A DNA stretch of 64,000 nt. Source: an uncultured Pseudomonadales bacterium. Lineage in GTDB: Bacteria > Pseudomonadota > Gammaproteobacteria > Pseudomonadales > Porticoccaceae. Within the stretch, counting starts at the first letter, position 1, and every line of letters begins with the position of its first letter. Below the pieces are notes generated by a model. It had not been told where the DNA came from and searched no databases. It saw only the letters and a list, made by a program, of their open reading frames with translations. The position numbers were made by a program, and so were the translations under genes. Location of the stretch: assembly GCA_943788875.1 (NCBI GenBank), contig CALSSA010000012.1:18855-82854 (forward strand). The letters are read 5' to 3'. Shown one piece after another: positions 12,464-38,003 of this stretch.

Positions 12464-12467
12464 AGTC

Positions 12468-12637
12468 GCTCCTGGGGTGTTTGCCAGCCAAGAAGTCCCT
12501 GAGCCGATAATTTATACCCGGCAGTTCTCCGCCAACAATGTTGTGCACTTCCGTGCGTCGGAAAGCCTGATTTGTTGCGAGGATAGCCACCTTGAACTCT
12601 TCGGTTCAAGGCCACGTTGGCAGCGGCACTCTGGGGT
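12468..12637 (+). ncRNA. ssrS: 6S RNA
   Basis: Canonical position between zapA and ygfA; conserved GTCCCTGAGCCGATA and CCTTGAAC-TCTTCG-GTTCAAGG segments; 5' CTCCTGGGGTG/TGCCAG pairs with 3' TTGGCA/CACTCTGGGG; ends approximate. Confidence 0.93.
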
Positions 12638-12660
12638 TTAACAAAAATCGGTTCGAATCT

Positions 12661-35993: not shown

Positions 35994-36980
35994 TTACCTT
36001 TGTTTGGCAACGCTGCCGCTCTCGGCCTCAAGCGTTTTCTCCCAATCATGAATCAAGCCAACAATCTTATCTGACAACCAGCGGTGAATGCCGGAGCCGG
36101 ATGTGCGCTTGTGTTGCAGTAACACCAATGAGATCGTACCTTTGTGAGGCAGGTCTGCTGGATAGGGCTTGCGCACAATACGATACATTTCACGTTCCAT
36201 AGTGAGACCATGTTTGGCGGCCACCATCAGACAGTCCGTACCACAGACAGTTTCTACTGCAGTCATCAACTGATTAGTCACCAGAGCTTTTTTGCGCTTG
36301 CGGCCCATATCTCGAAGAACTCGATCAAATCGTGCATCGGTGCGCGCACTGACGCGCTTGGCAATCAGCAGGTAATATTGCACAAAGGGATATTCCAGAA
36401 TTTCATCCAAGGTGACGCGACTTTTTTCAGCAAGGGGATGGTCTTCTCTCATCCAGATAGACGGCGTAAAGTTAGCCAGGCTTCTGATGCTAATGTCTTC
36501 TGTCATGGTTTTTTCAATATCAATAGCAAAGTCCAGTACGCCTTCTGCCAGCTCACCCTCTACTGATGAATCAGTCTCACTGGAAATTGACAACACCACA
36601 CCAGGCGCATGCTCAGTGACCACTTTGGATAATTGAGAGATCAGAGAAATGGCTACAAACTCAGGGACAGCAATACTAATCTCACCCACATAGGTAGCCG
36701 GATCAAACTCCCCCTCACTAACCATTTCCAAAATGCTATCCAACAATCTGGGCAACCGGGCCTGTAACTCCCGTGCTTTGGGGGTTGGTACAAGTTCATT
36801 GCCTGTGCGGGTAAATAATGGGTCATCGAGCTGATGTCTAAGCCGCTGCAATACGCGACTCATGGCGGGCTGAGTGATAAATAATCGTCCGGCTGCACGA
36901 GTCACGCTTTTCTCTTCAAGCAGGGCCTGCAGCGAAACCAGTAAATTGAGATCGAGTCGCGAAAGTTTCTGTAAATTCAT
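35994..36980 (-). CDS. LysR-type regulator, NodD/MexT/LeuO-like subgroup
   Basis: RLDLNLLVSLQALLEEKSVTRAA..LFITQPAMSRVLQRLR..LDDPLFTR helix-turn-helix; start at MNLQK. Confidence 0.92.
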   Translation of the reverse strand: MNLQKLSRLDLNLLVSLQALLEEKSVTRAAGRLFITQPAMSRVLQRLRHQLDDPLFTRTGNELVPTPKARELQARLPRLLDSILEMVSEGEFDPATYVGEISIAVPEFVAISLISQLSKVVTEHAPGVVLSISSETDSSVEGELAEGVLDFAIDIEKTMTEDISIRSLANFTPSIWMREDHPLAEKSRVTLDEILEYPFVQYYLLIAKRVSARTDARFDRVLRDMGRKRKKALVTNQLMTAVETVCGTDCLMVAAKHGLTMEREMYRIVRKPYPADLPHKGTISLVLLQHKRTSGSGIHRWLSDKIVGLIHDWEKTLEAESGSVAKQR

Positions 36981-36993
36981 TAAATTAAGCTCC

Positions 36994-37033
36994 ATTACCA
37001 AAACGCATATTATTAATGCAAACAATGCATTTG
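36994..37033. promoter_or_regulatory. LysR operator copy 1 (two T-N11-A sites 7 bp apart, nod-box-like)
   Basis: ATTACCAAAACGCAT-N7-ATGCAAACAATGCAT-TTG, between the LysR start and a divergent sORF; repeated at 37371-37410. Confidence 0.75.
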
Positions 37034-37059
37034 GATTATGTCATAGGAATCTCTATATT
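37031..37059 (+). promoter_or_regulatory. sigma70-like promoter of unit 1
   Basis: TTGGAT-N17-TATATT with the -35 abutting the operator. Confidence 0.55.
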
Positions 37060-37105
37060 GTCACCCATAGAGCAGTGGCTCTTAAATTTAACTAAGGAGA
37101 TAGAC

Positions 37106-37216
37106 ATGACACTCGTATATTTAATGATAGGTTTTACTGGCCTCGCGGGTGCTGCAATTGCGAAAGATAGTTTCGCCAAGTTGGAAGCACCAGGACTCGA
37201 GGCTTCTGAGAAGTAA
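37106..37216 (+). CDS. 36-aa small hydrophobic protein MTLVYLMIGFTGLAGAAIAKDSFAKLEAPGLEASEK
   Basis: Strong SD TAAGGAG 6 nt before ATG 37106; downstream of a promoter and upstream of a terminator; N-terminal hydrophobic helix. Confidence 0.65.
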   Translation: MTLVYLMIGFTGLAGAAIAKDSFAKLEAPGLEASEK

Positions 37217-37311
37217 AACTCGACAGCAACACTGAGTTTTTATTTACAGATTTACCAAATTCGTAGTTTTAAAGTATTACCCCTCTTAATCCTTGCTATA
37301 GGATTTTTTAC

Positions 37312-37339
37312 CGGGACCTGCCAAGGTCCCGTTTTTTTT
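37312..37339 (+). terminator. Rho-independent terminator 1
   Basis: CGGGACC-TGCCAA-GGTCCCG followed by T8. Confidence 0.9.
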
Positions 37340-37370
37340 GCCTGACCATTTTTAACGGTTAGTTTTGCAT

Positions 37371-37436
37371 ATTACCTAAACGCATGACTAGGATGCAAAT
37401 AATGCATTTGATTTATAGGCAGCAGATTTCTAATAT
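37371..37436 (+). promoter_or_regulatory. LysR operator copy 2 plus sigma70-like promoter
   Basis: ATTACCTAAACGCAT-N7-ATGCAAATAATGCAT-TTG (31/40 identical to copy 1); TTGATT-N17-TAATAT in the same register (+377). Confidence 0.72.
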
Positions 37437-37442
37437 GCTCCT

Positions 37443-37568
37443 ATTGAAAGAGAGACAGCAGTTTTAGAGAGGTGGCTAACAGCGGCTTCTCACATGTTTT
37501 ACCCCTAACCCCTCTTTGTATTCCATTCAAAGAATTTTTTCAGGAGCCTGCCAAGGCTCCTTTTTTTT
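37443..37568 (+). ncRNA. Candidate ~125-nt small RNA (unit 2)
   Basis: Bounded by promoter copy 2 and a plus-strand-only terminator; no credible ORF; 5' hairpin GAGAGG/CTTCTC and C-rich single-stranded core; 5' end estimated. Confidence 0.6.
37542..37568 (+). terminator. Rho-independent terminator 2
   Basis: AGGAGCC-TGCCAA-GGCTCCT followed by a T run; same loop as terminator 1. Confidence 0.9.
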
Positions 37569-37577
37569 GCCTAAAAT

Positions 37578-38003
37578 TTAGATACCAGCGGCCTCAATTA
37601 CATAACTATGACTCATTTCAACACCAGCAGCTTCAAGCATTATAGAGGCGGAGCAATATTTTTCGGCTGACAGCTCAACGGCACGCTTAACCTGCGCTTC
37701 TTTAAGATTAACGCCAGTAACGGTAAACTTCAGATGTATCTTGCTAAACACTGCAGGTACCGCGTCGACTCGCTCTGCTTCGACCTCAGCCCTGCAATCA
37801 GTGACCTGCTGGCGGCCCTTTTGCAGCATGCTCATCACATCGAAGGAAGCGCAGCCACCAAGTCCTACTAAAATCATTTCCATTGGGCGCACGCCCATAT
37901 TCCTACCGCCCTGCTCCGGCGCTCCGTCCATAACCACTGAATGGCCACTGCCGGATTCACCTAAAAACATCACACCGTCTACCCATTTTACTGTTGCCTG
38001 CAT
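37578..38003 (-). CDS. yhfA: OsmC/YhfA family protein
   Basis: GVRPMEMILVGLGGCASFDV, SAEKYCSAS; divergent from crp as in enterics and Pseudomonas. Confidence 0.9.
   Translation of the reverse strand: MQATVKWVDGVMFLGESGSGHSVVMDGAPEQGGRNMGVRPMEMILVGLGGCASFDVMSMLQKGRQQVTDCRAEVEAERVDAVPAVFSKIHLKFTVTGVNLKEAQVKRAVELSAEKYCSASIMLEAAGVEMSHSYVIEAAGI

Follow-up and report, generated by a model that had tools for sequence, protein, structure and literature searches.

The stretch of DNA analysed here, referred to as the window, comprises 64,000 nucleotides of contig CALSSA010000012.1 (positions 18,855 to 82,854 of the forward strand; assembly GCA_943788875.1) from an uncultured member of the Porticoccaceae. 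Between positions 37274 and 37568 it contains two copies of a 3' module, in which a C-rich motif is followed by a small hairpin, a U-rich spacer and a Rho-independent terminator. We consider it fairly probable that these modules are the functional 3' end common to two sibling regulatory RNAs, termed unit 1 and unit 2, that belong to one dedicated LysR-type circuit. As judged from sequence, the locus represents an undescribed LysR-controlled family of sibling small RNAs (sRNAs), one member of which is predicted to be dual-function, and pairing of the C-rich motifs (seeds) with mRNA is the probable mechanism.

In the proposed circuit, a LysR-type regulator encoded on the minus strand (35994-36980) would bind a double-dyad operator that abuts the -35 element of each of two tandem promoters, and would thereby drive units 1 and 2. 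Unit 1 (~273 nucleotides) would also encode a conserved hydrophobic peptide of 36 amino acids and hence act as a dual-function RNA, and unit 2 (~125 nucleotides) would be a purely non-coding RNA. A C-rich seed, predicted to be unpaired, is present in each RNA (ACCCCUCUU for unit 1, ACCCC-UAA-CCCCUCUU for unit 2). Directly on its 3' side follow a small hairpin, a U-run and a Rho-independent terminator, an order of elements that is typical of base-pairing sRNAs that depend on Hfq. The seeds would most likely pair with G-rich ribosome-binding sites (RBS) of the GAGGGG or AGGGGU type, which are present in ~1-2% of genes, and would block the initiation of translation. We infer that the predicted promoters are used, that the regulator activates them and that the RNAs depend on Hfq, and likewise RBS pairing and the identity of the targets.

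A sequence-only reading had described the layout of the two modules, and every element was found where it had been placed. The module of unit 1 consists of TACCCCTCTT (37278-37287), hairpin arms AATCCT (37288-37293) and AGGATT (37300-37305) that enclose the loop TGCTAT, a T-run (37304-37309), and the terminator core CGGGACC-TGCCAA-GGTCCCG (37312-37331), which runs into T8 (37332-37339). In the module of unit 2, TACCCCTAACCCCTCTT (37500-37516) and T6 (37535-37540) precede the core AGGAGCC-TGCCAA-GGCTCCT (37542-37561), from which a T-run extends up to 37568. The terminator stems of the two units differ at three of seven positions, and each difference is compensated in the other arm, as had been proposed. 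Both terminators are called on the plus strand in a consensus scan, which assigns to each a stem of 8 bp and the loop GCCA. The T-run of terminator 2 is confined to the plus strand, the minus-strand side of the hairpin continuing as GAAAAAATT with no T-run; the requirement for a plus-strand, non-coding and independently terminated RNA at unit 2 is thus upheld.

Whether the TGCCAA-loop terminator is a common repeat had been set beforehand as a check. Within the 2.48-Mb genome, hairpins with this loop and a T-run are confined to these two sites, and so are modules that combine CCCCTCTT with a terminator; a common repeat is not borne out. The resemblance between the modules is not a matter of chance, since they are the sole two copies in the genome, a covariance model matches both, and they are conserved genus-wide. 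The further suggestion, that the invariant loop is a second recognition site, did not survive the comparison of species. TGCCAA is found in both units only in this genome and in one near relative, and the loops elsewhere include TACCCAA, TTGCTTA, CACCAG, CTTCTTG, CCTCCCCGG and others; because the loop varies among species, the idea is unsupported. The identical 10-nucleotide tract CCTGCCAAGG in both units is better explained by a recent local event such as micro-conversion.

Comparison of homologous loci reveals two types of module. Type A, to which unit 1 belongs, reads ACCCCUCUU-AAUCCU...AGGAUU followed by a U-run and a terminator, and type B, represented by unit 2, reads ACCCC-U(A)A-CCCCU(U)CUUUG...CAAAG followed by the same two elements. 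A covariance model seeded with 32 type-A modules, the window's own among them and type B left out, matches the window at 37272-37336 (82.1 bits, E value 8.5e-19) and at 37501-37566 (43.5 bits, E value 1.5e-8). With it, 132 modules were retrieved from 72 sources, those of type A at 61-87 bits and those of type B at 30-48 bits. In the model alignment 98.6% of the cells are paired and double changes are present in 13 of the 14 base pairs, values that are reached by none of 500 shuffles and by no slid control; this alignment is fitted by the model and therefore leans toward the structure. The terminator helix covaries in all eight of its pairs, with 99.5% of cells paired among 118 distinct modules, and helix 1, the small hairpin, is 97% paired with double changes in five of six pairs when types A and B are taken together. 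Full-length alignments of type B made with MAFFT suffered from register shifts, and a model-guided alignment and independent folds of single sequences were used instead.

Among 65 distinct type-A modules, whose neighbouring regulators are 60-100% identical, the 15-nucleotide ACCCCUCUUAAUCCU and the partner arm AGGAUU are invariant, and loops and terminator stems vary while this block stays fixed. The CCCC tracts are kept in all type-B RNAs, and in nine RNAs, namely unit 2 of the window and eight divergent homologues, most of the C-rich stretch is left unpaired in the predicted folds. The perfect complement of the seed is AAGAGGGG(U), a G-rich variant of the Shine-Dalgarno (SD) sequence, with ordinary AGGAG pairing over just 4-5 bp. 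The C-rich motif had been taken for a seed that pairs with purine-rich SD regions; its conservation, its predicted accessibility and its SD-like complement speak for the seed, and the pairing with mRNA stands as the probable part of that claim.

Features that define Hfq-type sRNAs were found in both units, that is, a Rho-independent terminator with a poly-U tail and a conserved seed predicted to be single-stranded. The genome carries hfq, whose product is 76% identical to E. coli Hfq, and also encodes CsrA; ProQ was not found in the genome. At the gathering thresholds of Rfam 15, a scan of the whole window returned 6S RNA as its sole family, and none at the 3' modules. A permissive scan of 36900-37700 gave as its best match NmsRb on unit 1, at 22.1 bits against a gathering threshold of 52 (E value 0.58). 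A known RNA family is ruled out, nothing at the modules reaching the Rfam threshold, and no paper linking SAR92 or HTCC2207 with sRNAs was found.

Control of both units by the regulator is suggested by the arrangement of the region between its gene and osmC, in which one cassette of double dyad, promoter, short predicted transcript and 3' module occurs twice. The regulator, which is divergent from unit 1, shows the Pfam domains HTH_1 and LysR_substrate and belongs to the NodD/LeuO/YidZ/BsrA-like branch of LysR-type transcriptional regulators; its start is likely the methionine at codon 16 of an open reading frame (ORF) of 343 amino acids. All its NCBIfam matches lie under the equivalog cut-offs (best BsrA, 127 bits versus 480), and its relatives in the PDB include DntR and PA0477. 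Operator 1 (37005-37030) consists of GCAT-N7-ATGC (37005-37019) overlapping ATGCA-N5-TGCAT (37016-37030), the latter being a LysR box of the T-N11-A type, and abuts the -35 element of promoter 1. Operator 2 (37382-37407) has the same two dyads, GCAT-N7-ATGC and ATGCA-N5-TGCAT, and is the second and last copy of the full double dyad in the 2.48-Mb genome. Because the full operator is found only at units 1 and 2, the regulator appears to be dedicated to them, and its recognisable direct regulon, as predicted from the operator, would be these two transcripts.

Promoter 1 (37031-37059, plus strand) is predicted as TTGGAT-N17-TATATT with a start near 37066-37067, and promoter 2 (37408-37436, plus strand) as TTGATT-N17-TAATAT with a start near 37443-37444; the register of promoter 2 to its operator equals that of promoter 1. 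The operator is kept upstream of every unit in relatives, and so are the promoter hexamers and their register to the operator. An adjoining divergent LysR-type gene and a T-N11-A dyad beside the -35 element are the marks of a divergent sRNA regulated by a LysR-type protein, and both are present here, with binding and activation by the regulator as predictions. The promoter scan also lists, on the minus strand, a site resembling a promoter for the regulator gene; it overlaps the control region of unit 1, an arrangement that would allow autoregulation.

The predicted transcript of unit 1 (37066-37339, plus strand, ~273 nucleotides) is bounded by promoter 1 and terminator 1, and comprises a 5' untranslated region (UTR), the small ORF, a structured 3' region and the type-A module. 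The z-score of its minimum free energy (MFE) is -3.39. The small ORF (37106-37216, plus strand) encodes 36 amino acids, MTLVYLMIGFTGLAGAAIAKDSFAKLEAPGLEASEK, behind the strong SD sequence TAAGGAG, and its product has a hydrophobic N-terminal half and a charged tail. No Pfam or NCBIfam family covers it. Its protein sequence is conserved in most species as MTLVYxLxGFxGLxGAAIAKDxF; an ORF of 34-53 amino acids with the conserved N-terminal 25 residues and an SD sequence is present in ~50 species, as would suit a translated ORF. The ORF has been lost in a lineage of small genomes (1.0-1.6 Mb), where unit 1 is a bare sRNA, and in other lineages it is situated in a separate second or third operator-driven unit. 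As the modules persist without the ORF, and the ORF moves or vanishes, the 3' module is the constant part of the locus and the ORF is optional.

Directly past the stop codon of the ORF lies a hairpin, AAAACTC...GAGTTTT followed by T5-A-T3 (37215-37245, plus strand), which is present in the MFE fold and has analogous hairpins in relatives. It could be a weak or partial terminator that yields a short mRNA isoform, or a processing landmark that releases the 3' module. No promoter is predicted by the scan between the ORF and the type-A module, with this weak terminator-like hairpin intervening, and the 3' end of unit 1 could be released by processing. We also note that ACCAAATTCG, just downstream of the hairpin, is kept in type-A units. 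The type-A seed ACCCCUCUU (37279-37287) continues into AAUCCU to form the 15-nucleotide unvarying block (37279-37293), and is followed by the small hairpin AAUCCU-UGCUAU-AGGAUU (37288-37305), which appears in the folds. The U-run between hairpin and terminator (37304-37309) is present in all modules and is a candidate Hfq-binding stretch. Terminator 1, identified by the terminator scan, reads CGGGACCU-GCCA-AGGUCCCG with U8 (37312-37339).

Unit 2 (37443-37568, plus strand, ~125 nucleotides) is a predicted non-coding RNA of type B with no conserved ORF and an MFE z-score of -3.16. Its 5' stem-loop, SL1 (37467-37491), is present in both the MFE and the centroid folds, and the helix occurs at the same place in homologues with different sequences, such as GAGAGAU/AUUUCUC, GAAAGA/UUUUUC and GAAGAGUUAC/GUAACUCUU. 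The seed region UUUUACCCC-UAA-CCCCUCUU (37497-37516), which carries two C tracts, is unpaired in the centroid fold and takes part in just a weak 3-bp helix, in its upstream part, in the MFE fold. SL2, UCUUUG...CAAAGA (37513-37533), is found in the folds and overlaps the 3' end of the seed; variant arms in homologues keep the pairing (CCUUUGAGA/UCUCAGG, CUUGUG/CCAAGG). A U-run (37535-37540) leads to terminator 2, AGGAGCCU-GCCA-AGGCUCCU with U7 (37542-37568), which is called by the terminator scan. When eight divergent type-B homologues were folded singly, each gave SL1, a largely unpaired C-rich stretch, SL2, the U-run and the terminator, and six of them had z-scores between about -3 and -8.

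The locus is widespread within one clade, the marine SAR92/Porticoccaceae group to which the window's genome belongs. A BLAST search with unit 2 against 60 relatives found it genus-wide at 68-82% identity, and a pattern scan of the genomes of 185,579 species gave 88 loci, ~75 of them in Porticoccaceae/SAR92. The regulator adjoins the module in 81 of the 88 loci; the few other pattern matches (Smithella, Planktothrix etc.) lack the regulator and look like chance. In the ~75 SAR92/Porticoccaceae species, the layout is a LysR-type regulator followed by one to three units, each with operator, promoter and terminator. At least two operators are present in 59 of 77 distinct intergenic regions, nearly all of which hold at least one unit running from operator to terminator, and most show two. 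Among the loci of the 77 species, a motif search finds at least two modules in ~34, and the covariance model finds both types in most. At least two paralogous RNAs per genome with a common seed and a common 3' architecture, as is characteristic of sibling sRNAs, are therefore present. In an order-wide scan of 301 genomes with the covariance model, real matches were obtained only in this genus and one sister genus.

Candidate targets were sought by ranking translation-initiation regions by RNAduplex energy in a single genome, using 2209 genes from a rough gene caller whose gene calls are approximate; with long seeds, loop-rich artefacts dominate this ranking. Perfect matching is rare, at least eight contiguous Watson-Crick pairs with a seed being available in ~1.5% of genes. 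Conservation of the predicted pairing was checked in orthologs from ~30 species, with percentiles taken from the genome-wide energy distribution. The proteorhodopsin gene (G000 C3:25974-26666, outside the window) has an unusual RBS, GUAGGGGUUA, which is kept in most of 30 species; an SD sequence of its AGGGGU type is found in ~1% of the genes of this genome. The match to its RBS GUAGGGGUUACACAUG is 8 bp long, and its orthologs have a median at the 5.6th percentile with 87% below the 10th. The gene of a DctP-type TRAP binding protein, with the RBS AAGGGGUAAAAAAUG, offers a 10-bp seed match at the site AAGGGGUAAAA (-14.9 kcal/mol), and has a median at the 7.2th percentile with 62% below the 10th. 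Six neighbouring ortholog groups used as controls have medians between the 17th and 74th percentiles and fractions of 0-0.29 below the 10th; the same span, 17th-74th, holds for all eight comparison groups when leuA and pssA are included. Against a second complete genome, G023 (1010 ortholog pairs), the joint score of proteorhodopsin was matched by none of 40 shuffled-seed decoys. On the strength of these predicted matches, the proteorhodopsin and DctP-type TRAP binding-protein genes are the best candidate targets, tentatively. We also note that the TRAP binding-protein orthologue in G023 (G023:C1:445244-446189) is present in two overlapping pieces and is probably frameshifted or a pseudogene.

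A scan of 41 genomes for the perfect 8-mer AAGAGGGG before ATG found, when the counts of the single genomes were summed, 234 matches versus 122 for the reversed control, an enrichment that is roughly that expected of any SD-like word. A recurrent 8-mer match, AAGAGGGGTAATG, is the sRNA gene itself read on the other strand, and the search of the genome for extended seed complements of 12-22 nucleotides (the A15 scan and part of the A12 scan) gave the sRNA gene itself as the one near-perfect site. In the division and cell wall (dcw) cluster (G000 C7, ~124.9-141 kb, outside the window), mraZ, rsmH, murF, mraY, murG, murC and ftsZ have G-rich RBS. In complementarity to the seed, these seven genes are among the 40 highest of 1010 in the two genomes, whereas the decoys averaged 3.3 such genes and never exceeded 6.

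Several observations weigh against the pairing circuit in the form proposed above. Transcription, 5' ends and processing are all predicted from sequence, and a simple consensus promoter scan listed neither promoter 1 nor promoter 2. In the comparison with G023, 12 pairs lie in the top 5% in both genomes versus 9.4 +/- 2.2 in the 40 decoys, and no regulon-wide excess is evident, proteorhodopsin and the dcw cluster alone standing out. Two genes were rejected as targets since their pairing is not conserved: leuA, the top match in the single genome, whose RBS is not conserved and whose orthologs have a median at the 47th-49th percentile with a fraction of 0.05 below the 10th, and pssA, likewise with a non-conserved RBS, with a median at the 34th percentile and 0.09 below the 10th. 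In favour of the proteorhodopsin candidate, UAGGGG is present in its RBS in all 23 genomes with a type-B RNA (ACCCCUA being carried by most) and in none of six with type A only, but this association may reflect phylogeny, or phylogenetic inertia. When sRNA-target pairs were swapped between species, a species' own pairs did not score significantly better (p = 0.37 for proteorhodopsin, 0.36 for TRAP). Lastly, the arms AAUCCU and AGGAUU of the type-A hairpin do not covary but stay invariant, a state that would also suit a sequence-specific protein-binding site.

The last point leads to a different function for the same RNAs, in which they are decoys or sponges whose invariant ACCCCUCUUAAUCCU...AGGAUU block binds an RNA-binding protein and titrates it instead of pairing with mRNA. 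Invariance of both type-A hairpin arms goes beyond what structure alone requires, and the regulon-wide pairing signal, no higher than that of shuffled-seed decoys, also speaks for this reading. Type-B copies, though, keep the C tracts and change the sequence of the hairpin, which fits a pairing seed better, and no candidate protein is known. GGA occurs once in unit 2 and five times in the 273 nucleotides of unit 1, with no repeated GGA-in-loop pattern, so that a CsrA sponge of the CsrB/RsmZ type is ruled out. A decoy or sponge role as a whole seems unlikely. The modules could also be no more than mRNA ends, that of unit 1 forming the 3' UTR of the small-protein gene together with its terminator, for the sake of stability or termination, and unit 2 being a decaying, ORF-less duplicate with no function in trans. 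The operator, promoter and 3' module shared by the units do suggest that unit 2 originated by duplication, and the expression and targets of both units rest on prediction. Yet the small-genome lineage (1.0-1.6 Mb) lost the ORF and kept both modules and their promoters, and in other lineages type-A modules stand alone, with no ORF, behind their own operator. Unit 2, unlike a relic, retains a covarying 5' stem-loop and an unpaired seed across regulators of ~73-100% identity. Given that the modules outlast the ORF and that SL1 of unit 2 covaries, we regard this explanation as improbable.

Control in cis, with the seed folding onto the SD sequence of its own ORF, or with unit 2 pairing with the mRNA of unit 1 in the manner of a type I toxin-antitoxin system so as to control the peptide, would agree with the small size and hydrophobicity of the peptide, features of many type I toxins, and with the MFE fold of unit 1, in which the SD AGGAG pairs with the seed CUCUU. 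This pairing, of only ~5 bp, does not occur in the centroid fold, and the duplex of the module with the 5' UTR reaches -8.2 kcal/mol. Moreover, RNA and ORF are placed under one operator and are not antagonistic, and the RNAs persist where the ORF is lost. The predicted duplex of unit 2 with the 5' part of unit 1 (-51.0 kcal/mol) compares with -47.0 +/- 5.9 kcal/mol for shuffled sequences, 21% of which are as good; with no extended complementarity beyond the shuffled level, a type I toxin-antitoxin system is ruled out, and cis or autoregulation as a whole is very unlikely. Two near-identical terminators with the same loop within 230 bp might also suggest a dispersed terminator-containing repeat, REP-like or mobile, or an artefact with no specific role. 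The module, however, is always syntenic beside the same regulator, and its two sole genomic copies together with the narrow phylogenetic range found in the order-wide scan exclude a dispersed repeat, leaving this reading a negligible probability. Sibling regulatory RNAs under one LysR-type regulator remain the explanation that we prefer.

Bacterial systems with comparable features are known, and the locus belongs to none of the SgrS, AbcR, NmsR and RsaE/RoxS families. In the SgrR-SgrS/SgrT system of enterobacteria, a divergent regulator is found next to an RNA of ~230-270 nucleotides that encodes a peptide of ~40 amino acids at its 5' end and carries a pairing seed before the terminator at its 3' end; in some lineages the ORF is gone and the riboregulator alone is kept. 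Unit 1 resembles it in the divergent regulator, the 5' peptide ORF, the seed near the terminator and the optional nature of the ORF. In contrast, SgrR is not of the LysR type, SgrS lacks both a C-rich seed and a sibling, and there is no similarity in sequence or Rfam family. OxyR-OxyS and GcvA-GcvB each consist of a lysR gene and a divergent sRNA of the Hfq type, ending in a terminator, that share a control region. The divergent lysR gene and the terminator-ended RNA are alike, whereas these regulators control many protein-coding genes and have a single sRNA with no peptide, and their seeds are G/U-rich (GcvB) or of other kinds. RsaE/RoxS and LhrC of Firmicutes use unpaired C-rich motifs, often duplicated, to pair with G-rich RBS. 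The logic of the C-rich motif is shared with them, but they are Gram-positive RNAs, largely independent of Hfq and under other regulators, with no homology to the units described here; the context of RoxS is covered elsewhere (PMC8216469).

VtlR/LsrB, a LysR-type regulator of Alphaproteobacteria, directly activates the sibling sRNAs AbcR1 and AbcR2 together with small hypothetical proteins, and affects many genes indirectly via the sRNAs, which target mainly transporter mRNAs (PMC7486931, PMC8844928). A LysR-type regulator, sibling sRNAs and a small protein are common to both systems, and a TRAP binding-protein gene is a candidate target here. The two differ in that VtlR/LsrB belongs to another bacterial class with no homology, in that peptide and sRNA lie on one predicted transcript here, and in that the operator here is a GCAT/ATGC double dyad that occurs twice in the genome. 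NmsRA and NmsRB (RcoF1/2) of Neisseria are tandem siblings that repress translation through C/U-rich anti-SD stretches (PMC5362039; RF02877), and their expression depends on RelA and the stringent response (PMC5362039). Units 1 and 2 share the tandem arrangement and the C-rich seed logic; the NmsRb score below threshold indicates that they are not members of this family, and an adjacent LysR-type regulator would take the place of the dependence on RelA.

Streamlined marine heterotrophs possess few transcription factors, and their riboregulation is almost uncharted. The locus would offer a compact, testable circuit of one LysR-type regulator, two small RNAs and a 36-amino-acid peptide in ~75 species, and the confinement of operators to the two units would mean that a transcription factor acts almost entirely through RNA. 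A broader proposal is that of a clade-wide SAR92 switch, in which seed pairing throttles proteorhodopsin, nutrient-uptake and cell-division genes that have an unusual G-rich RBS, a metabolite signal is relayed to light harvesting in an abundant marine bacterium, and the 36-amino-acid membrane peptide acts as a second arm; we hold this to be rather doubtful. If the link to proteorhodopsin or the transporter is true, it would provide a first handle on how a bloom-associated clade controls light harvesting and uptake post-transcriptionally. Even aside from the link to targets, the modules could be added to RNA-family databases as a clean new family and could mark SAR92 in metatranscriptomes.

A variant cassette is found in the sister genus of the family (L214, G315:C2), where the regulator is followed by an operator, a small ORF (MALVYILMSFAGLTGVAIARDEL...), a second operator, a type-B RNA and osmC. 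The second operator overlaps the stop codon of the ORF, and no type-A module is present there. Weak model matches at L215 and L216 (family f55) correspond to tandem tRNA-like genes, each followed by a AAGGGACC...GGTCCCTTTTT terminator, and indicate that the module model partly scores plain terminators. Downstream of the modules in the window, unit 2 is convergent with an OsmC/YhfA-like gene (37578-38003, minus strand), beyond which lie crp/vfr and trpC. The 6S RNA (SsrS; RF00013) that Rfam identifies in the window is located at 12466-12641 on the plus strand, with 95.7 bits.

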